Part shown: positions 27,443 to 33,746 of the stretch, piece after piece
How positions within the stretch are numbered: position 1 is the stretch's first letter
Layout of the letters: every line of letters starts with the position of its first letter
Assembly (NCBI GenBank): GCA_051251855.1
Contig: JBPOGI010000005.1
Coordinates: 128,001-192,000, forward strand
Length of the DNA: 64,000 nucleotides
Source: Roseibacillus sp.
GTDB taxonomy: Bacteria > Verrucomicrobiota > Verrucomicrobiia > Verrucomicrobiales > Akkermansiaceae
Reading direction: 5' to 3'
Translations under genes and position numbers: made by a program
Notes under the pieces: model-generated
The model's database searches: none
What the model saw: only the letters and a program-made list of their open reading frames with translations
Told to the model about the DNA's origin: nothing

Positions 27443-28332
27443 TTTTTTGGTAGGAAGAAGCCTTTCTGTTTGTCGGAGATGGTCAAGCCCAGCTTTTCCA
27501 TCACTACGAGCATGTCTTCCCAGATTTTACGTTTTTCTGAGAGGGCGTCCTTGTCTTCGAGGAGAAGAAAGGAGGGGTGATGGCTGATGCGGACGGGAAC
27601 ATTGGCAGCTTCTTGCCAGTTTGAACGTAGCTCATCGAAACTTTCTTCACTTTCGAGAAGTCCATGAGCGGCGGCAGCTCCGAGGGCGATGATGACTTTG
27701 GGTCGCACAATTTCGATTTCGGCGAGAACGAAGGGGCGGGAGAGTTTGATCTCCTCGGGGCGGGCTGGGCGGTTGTTTCGCGTTTGGCCGGGTAGCGCGG
27801 GGCGAAATTTACAGAGGTTGGTGAGGTAGACCTGCTCGCGGGAGAGGCCCATGGCCTTGAGGATGGCGTCGAGTTTTTCGCCTGCGGGACCGGCGAATGG
27901 TTCGCGCTTTTGTTCGTCTTGGAAGCCGGGGGCATCGCCGATGAGCATGAGGTCGGCAGTGGGTTTGCTTTGGGAAAAGACGAGGGTCTTGCGAAAAGAG
28001 CCGAGGTCGCGGAAGGAGGGCCAGTGCTCGGCGAGGTCGCGCAGGTTGGCGAGTTTTTCCTCGGGAGTGTCGCCTTGAGGAGTGGGTTTGGGGATGTTGA
28101 GAGGAGCCTTGCGTTCGTCGCCATAGGCGGGACGAGGAATCATGGTCGTGCGTTGCGGAGCGGCAGCACTTGCGCTAGCTGGGGCAGTTTGCAGGGCTGC
28201 TTTTGAGACGGCTTTGTCTCCGAAGGTGATTTCTCCTTTGTAGATTTTACGCAGCACTTCGCGGGCCTCGGGTGTGACCGCGAGGTGGGTCTCGCCTTTG
28301 GCGAGGAGTTGGCGCAGATAGGGGAGAAGCAT
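27439..28332 (-). CDS. Uracil-DNA glycosylase, family 4-like
   Basis: LIGDAPG...EPFAGPAG, YLTN, NRP, ALG, HPSFLL. Confidence 0.88.
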   Translation of the reverse strand: MLLPYLRQLLAKGETHLAVTPEAREVLRKIYKGEITFGDKAVSKAALQTAPASASAAAPQRTTMIPRPAYGDERKAPLNIPKPTPQGDTPEEKLANLRDLAEHWPSFRDLGSFRKTLVFSQSKPTADLMLIGDAPGFQDEQKREPFAGPAGEKLDAILKAMGLSREQVYLTNLCKFRPALPGQTRNNRPARPEEIKLSRPFVLAEIEIVRPKVIIALGAAAAHGLLESEESFDELRSNWQEAANVPVRISHHPSFLLLEDKDALSEKRKIWEDMLVVMEKLGLTISDKQKGFFLPKK

Positions 28333-28476
28333 CTGGAAGGAAGAGTCGAGGATTGCGAGACCTTCGTCAAGGATGGGGCCCCCACATGTGGGGAAGACTG
28401 TCTATTTAGGGCCTTGTTTCAAAATAAGATTATTGAGAAAATCAGGCTCGACTTACAATCGAGGAACAACAACAAA

Positions 28477-29211
28477 ATGAACAATCAAAATCAGGGGCTT
28501 TCCGTGCCTTTTTTCGGAGCTTTGGTGGGGGTAAGCCTTTCACTATCGGCATCAGTTTCGGCTCAACTTCAAGGCCTTGACGTGCTGAACACGACAAACG
28601 GATCCTTTTCGGTGAGTGAGATGCAGTTCGGGGACGATGTCCTCTATTTCATCGATATCTTAAATGGGGGTTCTCTCGGAGGAGTGATTTTTTCATTCGA
28701 TGGCGGCGAAGGAGAGACAGATCCTCGTGGTGGCCTTGGTGGATTGGATGAACGCGAACCGATTGAGGAAGGACCGTTCGATGAAGGTCCCGGGAGTGAA
28801 GGATTCGTTTCCTTTTCAGGTGAATCGGTGTTTGCTCCTTGGGGGGTATCGTTCATGAGTGAGGAGAGTTGGAACGAGGGGGTGAACATTCAAATGGGCG
28901 GAGGAGTTCACTCGACGCTGGACCTTGGTTCATTTGGTTCTTTGTTTGGCTTGGATGATAATTATGCGGTCCTCTATTCTGATGTGTTGGGAGGTAACGC
29001 GATGACTGAGTTGAACGATGTTGATGGCTTGAACGCCGGCAATTTTGAGGAATACGCTCCTCATTTTGTGAGATATACGGGTGAGATCGCGACCAACGGG
29101 CTCTTTTTTGACGGCAATGGGGTGGTGATTGGTTCGACTGTGCCTGAGCCGACTTCCGCTCTGTTGGTGGCGTTGGGTTCTTTGGTTTTGCTAGGTCGGC
29201 GACGGAGCTAG
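28477..29211 (+). CDS. PEP-CTERM sorting domain protein
   Basis: Signal peptide; C-terminal VPEPTSALLVALGSLVLLGRRRS. Confidence 0.9.
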   Translation: MNNQNQGLSVPFFGALVGVSLSLSASVSAQLQGLDVLNTTNGSFSVSEMQFGDDVLYFIDILNGGSLGGVIFSFDGGEGETDPRGGLGGLDEREPIEEGPFDEGPGSEGFVSFSGESVFAPWGVSFMSEESWNEGVNIQMGGGVHSTLDLGSFGSLFGLDDNYAVLYSDVLGGNAMTELNDVDGLNAGNFEEYAPHFVRYTGEIATNGLFFDGNGVVIGSTVPEPTSALLVALGSLVLLGRRRS

Positions 29212-30299
29212 GATTTTCGGATCGGCAATAGCAGGCGGGAGAACCCGTGTGCGAGCACGACTCCCAGAAAAAGAACATTGCGAAGTAGCAGGAGGGGATG
29301 GAAGGGAAGTCGAATGGAGCAGGGATGAAACTCTGCGGTCGCCTTCGCTAAGGTCTCGAATTGGTAAACTTTCACGGGGAATTCTAGGATGGGAGTCATC
29401 CATTTTTTAGGAAAGGAATCGGGGCCATGGAGAGTGCCGCAAAGGGCACCCAAAATGGCTCCGGTAGTGTCGGTGTCTCCGCCTGCCTCCCAGATGGCTG
29501 GGAGTGCTTGCTCGGGTTTCCAATGATTTTTCATGCCACAGTGGAGGATGGCTGCTAGAGTGTGGTAGCAGTAGCCGGAGACCCCTTTCTGCGGTATTCC
29601 TCCGATGGCTTTGAGGAGGTTGTCCAGGGTTCCTTCGTTTTCGAGGTTGGCGCGAACTTCTTCTAGCAATGTTCGGAAGGAGGAGTTGGAATCGGGAAAG
29701 ATGATGGTCGACCAAATTTCGTCGGGTGTTGGAGCTTCTCTTCTGTTAGAAAAGAGGGCGGCGAGTTCGACGACAGCTCGCGAGCAGGATTCCGCTTTGG
29801 GGTCGGTATGGGTAAGGCGGGTTTGGATGCGGTTGAATTCTTGGCGTTTGTCCGGTTCATCGTGAAAGACGACACCGAGTAAAGCAGCGCGCATGCAGGG
29901 GCCATTGCCTGCGGACAAGACACCTGACTTCTCAGGAGAGGCTCCAAACCAGAGTTTGATGATTGCGCGGGCGGTGGCTAATCCGACTCCTGCGGGTAGA
30001 AAGAGAAACCAGTGCTTGAGACCGCGAGCTAGGAGGCGTTGAAATTTGATAGGGTCGCCGCCGGAATGGTTGAGAGCTTGGGCGAGAATGAGGGTGTGTT
30101 CGGTATCGTCGCTCCACAATCCTTTGGCAAACAAGAGGTGGTGCTGCCAGTCGGGAGCCCAGCCTCGTTTAGCAATGGAGGCGGGTGAGAGCCCCTCTGC
30201 AGGAAGACCGACGGAGTCGCCAATGGCGGTGCCGATGAGGAGTCCGTGGATTCGGATTGCAGTCTCAAGTTGAGGGGAAGATCTGATGTCCTTGCTCAT
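29208..30299 (-). CDS. ADP-ribosylglycohydrolase (DraG/ARH family)
   Basis: GTAIGDSVG, WSDDTE, SAGNG...MR, TH, GGDTDTTGA; hydrophobic C-terminal extension. Confidence 0.93.
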   Translation of the reverse strand: MSKDIRSSPQLETAIRIHGLLIGTAIGDSVGLPAEGLSPASIAKRGWAPDWQHHLLFAKGLWSDDTEHTLILAQALNHSGGDPIKFQRLLARGLKHWFLFLPAGVGLATARAIIKLWFGASPEKSGVLSAGNGPCMRAALLGVVFHDEPDKRQEFNRIQTRLTHTDPKAESCSRAVVELAALFSNRREAPTPDEIWSTIIFPDSNSSFRTLLEEVRANLENEGTLDNLLKAIGGIPQKGVSGYCYHTLAAILHCGMKNHWKPEQALPAIWEAGGDTDTTGAILGALCGTLHGPDSFPKKWMTPILEFPVKVYQFETLAKATAEFHPCSIRLPFHPLLLLRNVLFLGVVLAHGFSRLLLPIRKS

Positions 30300-31498
30300 A
30301 CTGCTTCGTGAAGGTGGAGGGGGGCTTCGTTTGTGCCGTTTTCGAGGCGGATGAGTTTATCGGGGTTGCGCTCTTGGGCGACGAGGATGGCGGTGAGGTC
30401 GGCGTTGGCGGTTTGGAGGTAGGTCCACTCTTGGGCGCGGAGTTCTAGCAGTTGCTTGCGATGGGTCTCTTCGGTGGCTTGGCGTTGTTTGAGGAGTTGG
30501 AGTTCGAGTTCTTCTTCTGCTTGGCGGGTGGCGAGGGTGGCGTTACGGTTTTCCTCTTTTTGCTTCAATTCGTGTTCGAGGGTGCGCTCTTGTTCGGCGC
30601 GATTGAGGAGGGCGCGTTCGTGTTCGTGGGTTTGTTGGAAGTCGGCGATTTCCTGACGGCGTTCTTCGGTCTCGGCTTCGAGGACGAGGGCGGTGCGGGT
30701 TTCGATGGCGTGGTCGTGCATTTGCTGGAGTTTGTTGGGGGCGAGGTAGCCGCGGTAGACGACTTTGGTGACGTCGTAACCGATGCGTTCGGCACCGCGT
30801 TGGAGTTCGCGGTAGGTGGTCATTTCGTTGAGGATGGCGGCTTCGGTTTTGAAGTCTTCGAACTTGCGTTTGCCGGCGAAGCGGATGATGTCGGCGGTAA
30901 GTGCATTGATGAAGTCGGCGATGGGGTCGTGGGTTTGGGCGAGCATGCGCTCGATGTCTTGGAGCTCAAAGAAGAGCATCACGCGCACGGTGATGAGGGC
31001 TTCGTCTGCGGTGCGAACGCCTTCGACATCGAAATACATTTGGTCGGGGATAATGCGCAGTTTGGTGAAAGTGAGGGCGCGGGGAATTTTTTGGCCTTTG
31101 CCGTTGTCTCCGTGCCAGCGGAACTGGTGCAGCCATTCGTTGGGTTGGGGGACGTAGACGGCGGGGCCGGGTAGAATGCGGTGGGTGACTTCGCGCTCGA
31201 CCTCGCGGTAGATGACGACGGCTTGGTTGGCGTCAAGGTTGATGGCTCGCTTGACTTGGACGGTCTGGTGAAGGAGAGGATCCATCCAGAGGTCAATGGG
31301 GCCGGCAAGGTGTTCGGTGGTGCCGTCGTGGTTGGCGACGATGAGGTATTCGCCATCGCGAGCGATGAAGCGTTGTAGGTATTCTGCGCGTTCGTTGAGG
31401 GTGAAGAGGACTTTGGGTCCTACGACGATGCGGCGGGTTCCGTTGCGGTGCCAGAGGGCGGCGGCTTGACCGTCTTGGATGGTGGTAGGGAGGATCAT
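30296..31498 (-). CDS. Major-vault-protein-like SPFH (Band 7) protein
   Basis: Three short repeats each containing GP, an SPFH/shoulder-like core (VRTADEALI...DPIADFINAL...FEDFK) and a long E/Q/R-rich coiled coil. Stop overlaps the ARH start (ATGA). Confidence 0.75.
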   Translation of the reverse strand: MILPTTIQDGQAAALWHRNGTRRIVVGPKVLFTLNERAEYLQRFIARDGEYLIVANHDGTTEHLAGPIDLWMDPLLHQTVQVKRAINLDANQAVVIYREVEREVTHRILPGPAVYVPQPNEWLHQFRWHGDNGKGQKIPRALTFTKLRIIPDQMYFDVEGVRTADEALITVRVMLFFELQDIERMLAQTHDPIADFINALTADIIRFAGKRKFEDFKTEAAILNEMTTYRELQRGAERIGYDVTKVVYRGYLAPNKLQQMHDHAIETRTALVLEAETEERRQEIADFQQTHEHERALLNRAEQERTLEHELKQKEENRNATLATRQAEEELELQLLKQRQATEETHRKQLLELRAQEWTYLQTANADLTAILVAQERNPDKLIRLENGTNEAPLHLHEAV

Positions 31499-31529
31499 GG
31501 TTCTGGTCTTTCTGGTTTGAGGTTGGAGT

Positions 31530-31583
31530 TTTATAAGTGTAAAAAATACACAAGTCAAGGTGAAGGTGTCACTTTTACACTTT
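31530..31583 (-). promoter_or_regulatory. Sigma70 promoter with two NrtR-type operators
   Basis: Minus strand TTGACT-N17-TATAAA (31558-31530); palindromes GTGT-N7-ACAC at 31537-31551 and 31566-31580. Confidence 0.75.
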
Positions 31584-31779: not shown

Positions 31780-32712
31780 CTATGCGCTGAGCTTTTGAAG
31801 CTGTTGCTCGCGCCAGATTGAGGGGGAACAGCCGTTTATTTTGGCAAAGGAGCGGTTGAACTGGGAGAGGGATTGGAAGCCGACTTGGAAGGCGATCTCG
31901 GAGACGCGGGTGGAGGGCCGGAGGAGTTCTTTACGCGCCCAGGCGATGCGGGCGCGGGTGACGTAGTCGGTGAGGGTGAGGCCAGTGATTTCTTTGAAAA
32001 CCCGGCAGAAGTGGCTTTCGGACAGGCCTGCTTGGTGGGCGATGACACCGAGGGGTAGGGGTTCGTCGAGGTTGGCGTGGATGAAGGTGCGGGCTTTGAG
32101 GATGGCCGCGGGTTCCTTGCCTTCTTCCATCATGGCGAGTTCTTCGGCGTGTTGGGAAAGTTGATTGCCGAAGGATTCGAGGAGGGCGACCATGGATTCA
32201 TAGCGCTTGGGATCGACGGTTTGGGTTTGGAAGTAAGCTTCCTTGAGGGGAGAAAGGTTGGATTCGTCGATGCCATCGGCGACGAGGGTTTTGGCGACGG
32301 CGTCGAACTTGCCTTCGGTGGGGAGTTGCCGGAAGACTTGGCCGGTTTTGAGGAAGCCGATGGTGGTGGCACCGATGCGGATGGGAACGGCGGTGGCGCA
32401 AAGGCCCGCGAAGCAGCCGCAAGACGAGGGGCCGGCGACTTCTGCCTGCGCCATGAGCTTGTGGTTGACGGCTTTGCATTCGCTACAGGCGGTGCTGCAG
32501 CGGTGAAGCATTTCGCAGAAGGGGGATTGGTTTTCGCGATGCTCGTTGAGGCACCATTGCTCGTCGGAGCGCATGAAACGGAGGGGGAGGCCGGTGGCGA
32601 GGCGGAAGGCGTCGCAGTAGTTTTTGAAGAGTTCGGACTCTTGGAGACGCAGAAAGAGAGCTTGCTCGAAGCTGGGGAGCTTAGCTGTTTTCTTCTGTGC
32701 GTTTGTCTTCAT
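31780..32712 (-). CDS. AraC-family regulator with N-terminal PocR-type sensor domain
   Basis: FRLATGL...SPFC...CFAGL...AVPI...GQV sensor domain; AraC HTHs (SESHFCRVFK, IAFQVGFQSLSQFNRSF). Confidence 0.9.
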   Translation of the reverse strand: MKTNAQKKTAKLPSFEQALFLRLQESELFKNYCDAFRLATGLPLRFMRSDEQWCLNEHRENQSPFCEMLHRCSTACSECKAVNHKLMAQAEVAGPSSCGCFAGLCATAVPIRIGATTIGFLKTGQVFRQLPTEGKFDAVAKTLVADGIDESNLSPLKEAYFQTQTVDPKRYESMVALLESFGNQLSQHAEELAMMEEGKEPAAILKARTFIHANLDEPLPLGVIAHQAGLSESHFCRVFKEITGLTLTDYVTRARIAWARKELLRPSTRVSEIAFQVGFQSLSQFNRSFAKINGCSPSIWREQQLQKLSA

Positions 32713-32807
32713 GGCTTCTGGCGGGGATACTGGAGAAACGGGCCCTCTCTTGCAAGTCGAACTCGTTCGTTTTGGCGGGAGAGGTCTCTTTTGTGGAATT
32801 TTGTTGG

Positions 32808-33746
32808 TCAGCTCTTTTGTCGGGGAGATTCCATGGTGACGGTCTTGGAGAGGCGGGTGACAGCGGCGTTGAGGTCGCGGATTTGGTTGGAGAGGGTGGC
32901 GACTTGATGGGGGAGGTCGAGGGTGCTGCTAGTACCGTCGAGGGCGGCTTCGGCTCTTTTGATGGCTTCGATTTCGGCATCGACGCGGGCGTCGTCCATG
33001 CCGTTGACGATGACGCCAATGACGAGGTTGAGCATGACCATGGTGCCTAAGAGGACAAAGGAGACGAAGTAGGCGGTGGCGAGGATGGGCTGGGCTTTGG
33101 GCTCGAGAGGGGGATAGTGGGAGGCGAGGCTGGCGGCGCTGATGTTGTAGCCTTCGTAGACGTGGGAGCCGTAGATTTGGAGATACATGACGTCGGTCCA
33201 GTCCTCGAGGGTGACGATGCGGAAGAGGGAGAGGAGGGCGTCGAAGATGTTGCCGAAGTGGACGGGGTCGTTTTTGGCGAAGAACATCACTCCGGCGACG
33301 GCGTAGACGTAGAAGAGTAGGAGGAGAAGAACGGTGACGTAGAGCATGGAGGGGAGGCTCTTGAGGAGTGCGTTGACGAGCAGTTGGAGCTTGGGGACGG
33401 AGGAGAGGAGGCGAAGGACTCGTAGGAGGCGGAAAAGTCGGAGGACGGGGCCGAAGCTTCCGCTGGCAGGAATGAGGCAGACGGCGACGATGATAAAGTC
33501 GAAGACGTTCCAGCCGTCTTTGAAGAAGTCTTGGGGACGGGGGGCGAGGGCGACTATCTTGATGACGATCTCGGCGATGAAGATGAGAAGGACGAGCCAG
33601 TCGAGCGTTTTGAGAAGGGTGTGATATTTCTCGTAGGTGGGCTCGTGGGTTTCGACGCCGACAAGGATGCCGGCGAAGACGATGACCGCGATGATGAAGC
33701 GGTTAAAGAGAGGGGAGTTGACGAGAGCCTGGCAGCGTTCTTTCAC
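32808..33746 (-). CDS. Bacterial voltage-gated Na+ channel (6TM ion transporter)
   Basis: DGWNVFDF, S4 RLFRLLRVLRLL, filter TLEDWTD, S6 LNLVIGVIV, C-terminal coiled coil. Confidence 0.92.
   Translation of the reverse strand: MKERCQALVNSPLFNRFIIAVIVFAGILVGVETHEPTYEKYHTLLKTLDWLVLLIFIAEIVIKIVALAPRPQDFFKDGWNVFDFIIVAVCLIPASGSFGPVLRLFRLLRVLRLLSSVPKLQLLVNALLKSLPSMLYVTVLLLLLFYVYAVAGVMFFAKNDPVHFGNIFDALLSLFRIVTLEDWTDVMYLQIYGSHVYEGYNISAASLASHYPPLEPKAQPILATAYFVSFVLLGTMVMLNLVIGVIVNGMDDARVDAEIEAIKRAEAALDGTSSTLDLPHQVATLSNQIRDLNAAVTRLSKTVTMESPRQKS

Follow-up and report, generated by a model that had tools for sequence, protein, structure and literature searches.

The stretch of DNA analysed here (the window) comprises 64,000 nucleotides of Roseibacillus sp. 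(GenBank assembly GCA_051251855.1, contig JBPOGI010000005.1, positions 128,001 to 192,000). Two genes lie in tandem on its minus strand, one for a short protein resembling the major vault protein (MVP) and one for an ADP-ribosylglycohydrolase (ARH). The MVP-like gene (P0001; 30296..31498, 400 amino acids) was identified from its open reading frame (ORF), an AlphaFold2 model and searches of that model with Foldseek and VIA. The ARH gene (P0002; 29208..30299, 363 amino acids) was identified from its ORF, a match to PF03747, its metal motifs and an ATGA overlap with the gene before it. A first-pass annotation of this DNA had described the same pair, and both ORFs were found where it placed them. 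We re-read the junction as GTATGAGC, in which the ATG of the ARH gene shares bases with the TGA of the MVP-like gene; judged from this overlap, the ARH gene is translationally coupled to the MVP-like gene. In our reading, the MVP-like protein belongs, as a short form, to the vault protein lineage within the SPFH proteins, and its gene is an accessory member of the NrtR regulon for salvage of nicotinamide adenine dinucleotide (NAD).

Two alignments of the family were used, a close one with 55 members (A1) and a wider one with 104 members (A2). M1 of the MVP-like protein was nearly invariant in A1, and the ATG start was therefore preferred over a TTG at 31558. The 420-residue form that would begin at this TTG was ruled out; the TTG is the start of a -35 box, and the relatives begin at the ATG. 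From its N terminus the protein is predicted to consist of three MVP-type repeats (residues 1-124; 31127..31498), a shoulder or SPFH domain (residues 125-254; 30737..31126) that includes the equivalent of the keyhole loop (residues 126-155; 31034-31123), an equivalent of the cap helix (residues 255-363; 30410..30736; 109 residues, about 16 nm) and a C-terminal tail (30299..30409), all on the minus strand. The tail has a predicted local distance difference test (pLDDT) score below 50 from residue 376 and ends in a conserved H-x-H-E. The repeats were assigned from the model, Foldseek and VIA, the shoulder from the model and profile alignments, and the helix from the model. A repeat profile built from the family placed the three repeats at residues 4-38, 43-82 and 86-124; the number of repeats thus agreed with the first-pass annotation, but their length was 41-43 residues and not the roughly 45 that it had given.

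The AlphaFold2 model, built from 55 close relatives, had a mean pLDDT of 83 and a predicted template modelling score of 0.52. It showed three beta repeats, an alpha/beta domain at residues 125-254, a single helix at residues 255-363 and a tail without confident structure. When the whole model was searched with Foldseek, ranks 1-12 were all MVP or vault entries (E 1.2e-13 to 1.5e-9), followed by stomatin (5e-8), flotillin and HflK/C. VIA also placed rat MVP first (Z 13.5, root-mean-square deviation (rmsd) 11.8 over 355 aligned residues), with model residues 1-370 lying on residues 320-766 of the chain. The repeats alone were compared as a separate model (pLDDT 90.8), which is the sharper test of likeness to MVP among these model-based comparisons. 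MVP occupied every row listed by Foldseek to rank 16 (best E 2.9e-4, template modelling score up to 0.75), and VIA matched rat MVP with a Z of 9.2 and an rmsd of 2.8 over 124 residues, whereas the next non-MVP family reached a Z of 5.4 and covered one repeat. MVP thus came first among the fold matches of both the whole model and the repeats, the repeats do match the MVP repeat fold, and the proposed order of repeats, shoulder and cap helix with three repeats was borne out. On these models we consider an MVP-type fold nearly certain, and the protein is probably a homologue of MVP that would work in a similar way. In addition, the first subdomains of prohibitin, HflK/C, erlin, flotillin and QmcA could each be superposed on a single repeat, with Z values of 3.4-5.4 over about 40 residues. 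Low as these values are, they suggest that the MVP repeats are multiplied copies of the SPFH first subdomain.

At the level of sequence, the identity of the MVP-like protein to MVP was about 17%. A single-sequence search of the PDB returned no MVP chain, only coiled-coil noise. Profile searches of PDB sequences placed MVP chains at the top, with E values of 0.16, 0.0095 and 0.0047. Among the A1 members, 8 of 55 matched Vault_3 and 2 of 55 matched MVP_shoulder at an E value of 0.1 or less. The HMMER alignment to MVP reproduced the AI.LD.N repeat motif, the TAD and the D..D....A...F.DF pattern. Three of four alignments to human MVP that had been made by eye were recovered in this way, but ARVVFGPE paired with repeat 3 and not with the repeat-1 motif that had been quoted for it. 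NCBIfam and PADLOC scans gave nothing for the MVP-like protein. It has no membrane anchor by hydropathy (maximum over 19 residues, 0.98), and transmembrane-like stretches were found in 1 of 55 A1 and 6 of 104 A2 members.

The nearest named relatives were from Haloferula, Rubritalea and Oceaniferula (58-66% identity). A homologue search returned 1477 proteins at an E value of 0.001 or less among 7178 candidates, and a second search returned 1045 cluster representatives, of which 246 had E values below 1e-30. Of 267 family proteins, 146 had 3 repeats, 46 had 5 and a few had 6-7, counts from a profile that may miss distant repeats. The counts were mostly 3 or 5 and up to 7 (P0017, P0049 and P0125, the last of 809 amino acids, among others), as if the proteins had grown by two-repeat duplications. 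In P0131 and P0153 the repeats are preceded by about 200 residues of unrelated N-terminal sequence. Records with the gene span Verrucomicrobiota, Planctomycetota, Omnitrophota and Sericytochromatia; the gene is rare: with the present genome included in each count, it occurs in 2 of 401 genomes across the phylum and in 7 of the 121 from relatives. In one metagenome-assembled genome (L016:5779-6882) it is split over more than one frame, through real decay or assembly error. The nearest ESM Atlas clusters carry Band_7, MVP_shoulder and Vault_3 and hold many eukaryotic members (Mollusca, Rotifera, Haptophyta) of 400-510 amino acids; in the top cluster, 67% of the members with a record were eukaryotic and Mollusca were commonest, which we take as a lead only. 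Phage clusters with MVP_shoulder were also among the nearest. A scan of IMG/VR gave 7 pattern matches, 0 of which were confirmed, and a search of the present genome with PF11978 gave no match but was uninformative because control genomes were equally silent. Only 2 unnamed proteins came back when one distant family member served as the query.

The pair had been said to have its own promoter. A putative sigma-70 promoter, TTGACT-17-TATAAA (31530..31558, minus strand), was found by eye, a site that the rule of our scan tool excludes; the tool itself returned promoter and terminator counts at chance level, with one 9-of-12 promoter site against 1.1 expected. Two NrtR-type operators of the form GTGT-N7-ACAC accompany the putative promoter, one just upstream of the -35 box (31566..31580) and one in the spacer that separates the -35 box from the -10 box (31537..31551). 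Only 10 GTGT-N7-ACAC sites occur in the 4.96 Mb genome. Four of them have an AT-rich core: the two described here, that ahead of pncB-nadE-Nudix and that ahead of nrtR-pncA. When a matrix was trained on the pncB and nrtR sites and no others, it ranked the spacer site 3rd and the upstream site 4th in the 4.96 Mb (18.9 and 17.0 bits; next 16.0). In this genome the operon is split three ways, with pncB-nadE-Nudix and nrtR-pncA on contig C1 and the MVP-like/ARH pair here. The genome encodes NrtR as a Nudix and winged-helix protein (PF21906, E 1.8e-29, at G000:C1:1624421), which scores 191 bits to NF050029, below the cut-off of 400. Two weaker NrtR-like sites were also seen at G000:C8:113113 and G000:C9:251439 (15.6 and 15.1 bits). 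According to the portion of the NrtR literature consulted, the core site is GT-N7-AC and ADP-ribose suppresses DNA binding by NrtR (PMC2330246). We regard control of the MVP-like gene by NrtR, as read from these sites, as highly likely.

For gene context, 104 loci were pooled: 17 from genomes, 80 from metagenomes (the best of 239 matches) and 7 regions that genome searches had turned up. At 80% identity these reduced to 73 non-redundant loci. The loci were found by peptide patterns and are all close relatives (42-66% identity), and the context counts cover these. Neighbouring genes were labelled by BLAST to seeds named via Pfam, and 35 of the non-redundant loci, each with 2.5 kb or more on either side, were treated as well flanked. 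Among these 35, nrtR was present in 34 (within 6 kb or so), pncA in 29, nadE in 19 and pncB in 17. An ARH of any type was found in 23 and one of the P0002 type in 19, while 12 showed no ARH; a NudE-like Nudix gene was present in 20, Tpt1 in 14, DUF4291 in 8 and macro in 7, and none of these in 1 locus. The gene directly upstream of the MVP-like gene was pncA in 33 of 58 loci. Directly downstream (64 loci) were Nudix in 28, any ARH in 10, a P0002-type ARH in 6 and no labelled gene in 19. NADAR, PARG, NAD kinase, PnuC/NadR, prs and nadD were further neighbours, and the arrangement varied from locus to locus. With a four-site matrix, a candidate operator of at least 12 bits was found in 48 of the 73 loci; in 46 of them it heads nrtR, pncB, pncA or the MVP-like gene, as read by eye from printed distances. 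Two well-flanked loci without NAD neighbours (L011 and L075) retain the box directly before the MVP-like gene. Of 121 related genomes, 53 have NrtR, 27 the P0002-type ARH and 7 the MVP-like gene; NrtR is found in every one of these 7, although these kin are not independent, and the P0002-type ARH in 6 of them. We conclude that the stable context of the MVP-like gene is the NrtR NAD-salvage regulon, of which it is an accessory member. The first-pass annotation had overlooked this regulon, to which the two operators point at the present locus.

The first-pass annotation had tied the pair to ADP-ribose biology, and this link holds across the loci of relatives. The neighbourhood survey agreed with its pairing in that some ARH was present in 23 of the 35 well-flanked loci, but an ARH was the next gene downstream in 10 of 64 only. 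These counts, together with the co-occurrence counts, indicate a link that is real but loose, with the MVP-like gene as an optional part of a larger unit. Four operons share a family of 156-160 amino acids (L029:8238-8720, L053:7982-8464, L074:5500-5976 and L062:6501-6971), of which one member weakly matches Macro (E 2e-6) and three match nothing. No PARP or TROVE family and no ADP-ribosyltransferase was found among 80 + 42 neighbour ORFs, a selection of the neighbours; neither a genome-wide nor an RNA search was made for the minor vault components (PARP4, TEP1 and vault RNA).

P0002 matched PF03747 with an E value of 5e-51 (174 bits, cut-off 26), and its acidic metal-site motifs GDS, SDDTE and GDTDT are intact and align to MJ1187. 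It was rejected as an orthologue of DraG (76.5 against 337 bits) or Tri1 (28.5 against 490 bits) because it lies below both NCBIfam cut-offs. A hydrophobic tail had been noticed in the ARH, and the C-terminal segment (about residues 336-360; 29220..29294, minus strand) does show a Kyte-Doolittle value of 1.92 over 19 residues from 342, with the conserved pattern RN..F...V..HGF.RL. The tail, RN..F...V..HGF.RL(LPP), is conserved in the ARH subgroup of P0002 and absent from a second ARH type in the relatives; from its sequence it may be a membrane helix or may fold back on the enzyme. The second ARH type scores 344 bits to the Tri1 immunity model (cut-off 490). PADLOC (library dated 2023) returned 0 families for the MVP-like protein or the ARH at an E value of 0.01. 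Converging on the ARH gene is a PEP-CTERM-like gene (28285-29211, plus strand); the stop codons of the two overlap, which leaves no intergenic space for a terminator. Upstream of the pair (31780-33746, minus strand) are genes for a PocR-AraC regulator and an Ion_trans channel, neither of which recurred among the clustered neighbours of related loci.

Human MVP has a site between two shoulders, behind the keyhole loop, that binds NAD+ and ADP at tens of micromolar (PMC12280208), and ADP-ribose is present between the MVP shoulders in native brain vaults (bioRxiv 2026.05.01.722283), according to the parts of these reports that were available to us. We mapped the residues of this pocket onto the MVP-like protein by HMMER. 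K506, P508 and D521 correspond to the identical residues K137, P139 and D152, while L517, F522, P565 and K573 correspond to R148, Q153, H190 and N198. In A1, 9 of the 12 mappable pocket positions were at least 95% conserved compared to 60 of 130 shoulder positions (P 0.035); an earlier version without R504 and R437 gave 9 of 11 (P 0.014), and the 12-position version adds R504. The keyhole region was basic in 55 of 55 A1 members (4-8 K/R against 1-4 D/E). Invariant polar residues of A1 cluster between the modelled subunits (W128, H129, K137, D152, Q153, H190, D191, D195, N198 and D203), several of which vary in A2. From these sequence comparisons, binding of NAD+ or ADP-ribose by the MVP-like protein is plausible, with the arguments for and against in balance.

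Self-association was modelled with three copies of residues 42-340 and two ADP-ribose molecules, the ligand being neither scored nor placed. The trimer model scored 0.45 compared to 0.00 for the best control, and its runs agreed in at least 88% of contacts with partner pLDDT of at least 78. Of 30 solved homo-pairs, 20 reached the same mark, as did 1 of 23 single chains; these counts apply only roughly here. Face A (45-49, 65-69, 87-91, 111-114, 148-153 and 247-251) packed on face B (55-61, 97-106, 119-124 and 186-206). Two different faces are in contact in this model, a pattern typical for ring-forming subunits. The most confident contact joined R148, at the position of human L517, to H190 of the neighbor, at the position of P565, and these are the two sides of the human pocket; residues 126-147 of the keyhole region were outside the confident interface residues. 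The model supports side-by-side self-association of the MVP-like protein, although solved SPFH rings may have steered it, and we think it likely that the oligomer would be of the ring type.

Taken together, we favor a reading in which the MVP-like protein forms a ring or dome induced by ADP-ribose and holds NAD+ or ADP-ribose at the junctions of its subunits as a buffer or hand-over site, an interpretation to which we give an even chance. NrtR would sit on the two operators over the promoter and release them when cleavage of NAD+ raises free ADP-ribose, a step that draws on strong sequence evidence and on the established biology of NrtR; the MVP-like/ARH pair would then be expressed alongside nrtR-pncA and pncB-nadE-Nudix. 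As in the trimer model, repeats 2-3 and the shoulder could hold the subunits side by side, and the product would be a soluble ring or dome, in effect a squat half-vault. By analogy with human MVP, NAD+ or ADP-ribose might be held at each junction of two shoulders behind the keyhole loop. The role of the oligomer would be to buffer NAD+ or reactive free ADP-ribose, or to present them, as the ARH frees ADP-ribose from modified targets; Nudix would split ADP-ribose, and PncA, PncB and NadE would rebuild NAD+. The ARH is in this scheme a co-regulated eraser rather than a dedicated partner.

A number of observations weigh against this interpretation. In sequence the protein resembles MVP only marginally (E values of the best profiles, 0.0047-0.0095), the Pfam match to Vault_3 (E 0.032, 14.8 bits) is below the cut-off of 28.8, and no Pfam Vault or MVP_shoulder gathering score was reached. 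The protein has 3 repeats in 400 amino acids and not the nine-repeat, about 850-890-residue build of MVP; for its repeat number and its Pfam scores we do not class it as a vault. The VIA search of the whole model separates MVP poorly from canonical SPFH proteins (Z 13.5 compared to 12.4), the stomatin SPFH domain being matched with an rmsd of 2.4 over 106 residues. Of the human phosphate and ribose contacts in the pocket, R511 aligns to L142, R504 to a variable position and K573 to Asn; R437 has no counterpart because it falls in a stretch missing from the MVP-like protein, and as aligned two phosphate-binding arginines of the human pocket are missing. The mapping of W545 to F177 is an ungapped count by hand and not from HMMER. 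The conservation seen in A1 disappears in A2, in which 0 of 11 pocket positions were at least 95% conserved, with no enrichment over the rest of the shoulder (P 1.0), and because the conserved pocket positions are also at the modelled interface, packing alone could explain their conservation. The pass of the trimer model may itself reflect likeness, since SPFH and MVP oligomers exist in the PDB. Finally, the context counts are drawn from close relatives, and 46 of 53 genomes with NrtR do not have the MVP-like gene, which is thus dispensable for NAD salvage.

The overlap of pocket and interface also suits a scaffold without ligand, in which the ring or dome gathers Nudix, PncA, ARH and Tpt1, possibly bound to a membrane by the ARH tail, and the keyhole is kept for packing. 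The usual position of the MVP-like gene between pncA and the Nudix gene is consistent with such a scaffold, as are the conserved pocket-equivalent residues at the interface of the trimer model and the conserved hydrophobic tail in the ARH subgroup of P0002. However, variation of the neighbors between loci suits co-regulation better than a fixed complex, and the basic excess of the keyhole throughout the 55 A1 members, with residues 126-147 outside the confident interface, also weighs against it. We consider the scaffold unlikely.

The patchy spread of the gene (2 of 401 phylum genomes, 7 of 121 relatives) and the loss of pocket conservation in distant members (A2) would also be expected of a generic stress SPFH protein that is merely co-induced with NAD salvage, with ADP-ribose as an alarm signal and no NAD chemistry of its own. 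We give little credence to this explanation, given that the protein has no membrane anchor (hydropathy 0.98; a transmembrane-like stretch in 1 of 55 A1 members) and that the homologous eukaryotic shoulder binds the same ligand that controls the NrtR regulon. The first-pass annotation had instead proposed a closed mini-vault that encloses or partners the ARH, the two genes serving as a dedicated defence against toxins or phage effectors that ADP-ribosylate. At the present locus, the translational coupling and the shared putative promoter fit this proposal, as do the P0002-type ARH in 6 of 7 genomes with the MVP-like gene compared to 27 of 121 overall and the likeness of the second ARH type of relatives to the Tri1 immunity model (344 bits, cut-off 490). 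The dedicated system nevertheless fails on the wider counts: an ARH gene follows immediately in 10 of 64 loci (P0002 type in 6), 12 of 35 well-flanked loci show no ARH, and 21 of 27 genomes with the P0002-type ARH do not have the MVP-like gene. With no PADLOC match, housekeeping salvage genes as neighbors and no ADP-ribosyltransferase in the 80 + 42 ORFs scanned, we consider such a defence pair very unlikely. That the oligomer is itself an enzyme, an NAD+ glycohydrolase or an ADP-ribose-processing enzyme with its active site between subunits, is extremely improbable, because, despite the invariant polar residues between subunits in A1 and the position of the gene between enzymes using the two products of NAD+ cleavage, the parts of the MVP literature consulted describe binding only (PMC12280208; bioRxiv 2026.05.01.722283), an NADase induced by ADP-ribose would drain NAD+, and several candidate residues vary in A2.

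Returning to the ADP-ribose-induced ring or dome that we favor, a more specific form of it is a bacterial mini-vault, a closed or dome-shaped particle with NAD+ or ADP-ribose in its shoulder pockets that houses or feeds eraser and salvage enzymes; we raise this form tentatively and hold it to be doubtful. If it were true, nucleotide handling would be the conserved core function of the vault lineage, and the lineage would include a family with 3, 5 or 7 repeats, maybe also in molluscs and protists, of which the nine-repeat vault is the elongated form. Two recent papers, in the parts available, place NAD+ or ADP-ribose in the human shoulder by structure only. The gene context and operators of a divergent bacterial relative provide independent genetic evidence for a link between vaults and NAD or ADP-ribose. 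A relative of half the size of MVP would be a simple system for the idea that vaults handle NAD and ADP-ribose, offering a small protein, cultured hosts (Haloferula rosea and Adhaeretor mobilis) and a defined inducer.

Compared with known systems, P0002 resembles the ARH/DraG family (MJ1187, 1T5J; the Thermus thermophilus protein, 2CWC; DraG; Tri1; ARH3) in its PF03747 domain and acidic metal motifs, and differs in lying below the DraG and Tri1 cut-offs and in its conserved hydrophobic C-terminal motif. The regulon resembles described NrtR regulons in its GT-N7-AC palindromes and its pncA, pncB and nadE targets (PMC2330246, consulted in part). The same source reports linkage of nrtR and draG in Streptomyces and a pncB-nrtR-pncA arrangement in Blastopirellula; no SPFH or vault gene appears in the parts of its Table 1 consulted, and its supplement may list more members. 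A literature search over titles and abstracts, with few subscription journals and no supplements, gave no paper connecting a short protein of the MVP type with NrtR or with the salvage of NAD. Canonical SPFH proteins (stomatin, HflK/C, QmcA, flotillin, prohibitin and erlin; literature consulted in part, PMC13100048 and PMC12624060) share the shoulder fold, and one repeat resembles their first subdomain (Z 4-5). A plain membrane SPFH protein was ruled out here because no anchor lies upstream of the SPFH domain (maximum hydropathy 0.98).

Among proteins already related to MVP, full-length bacterial MVPs of Myxococcales, Cytophagales and Oscillatoriales are more than 50% identical to eukaryotic MVP (bioRxiv 872010), and phage homologues have been described (bioRxiv 2023.11.10.566534); the portions of these two accounts available to us mention no NAD operon or link to NrtR, and NAD itself goes unmentioned in the phage account. 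Short MVP-like proteins of Naegleria have 530-559 amino acids and fewer repeats (PMC3595041, in the part consulted), a likeness by description of length and repeat number and not by family comparison. Unlike the vault partners PARP4 and TEP1, the neighbors of the MVP-like gene are erasers and salvage enzymes. The closest structural relatives considered were the eukaryotic MVPs (rat, 4V60/6BP7; human, 9BW5, 9MXV with ADP and 9MXJ with ADP-ribose), which build a closed barrel of 78 subunits in two halves. In contrast to these, the MVP-like protein has 400 rather than about 890 amino acids, 3 rather than 9 repeats and a helix of 109 residues that is shorter than the 42 turns given for MVP in the part of PMC3595041 consulted, and it does not keep R511, R504, R437 and K573. 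It shares with MVP the repeat fold, the shoulder with its keyhole loop right after the last repeat, the long helix, the order of these parts and the lack of a membrane anchor, and K506, P508, P520-D521, the TAD, D566 and D570 align to identical residues.

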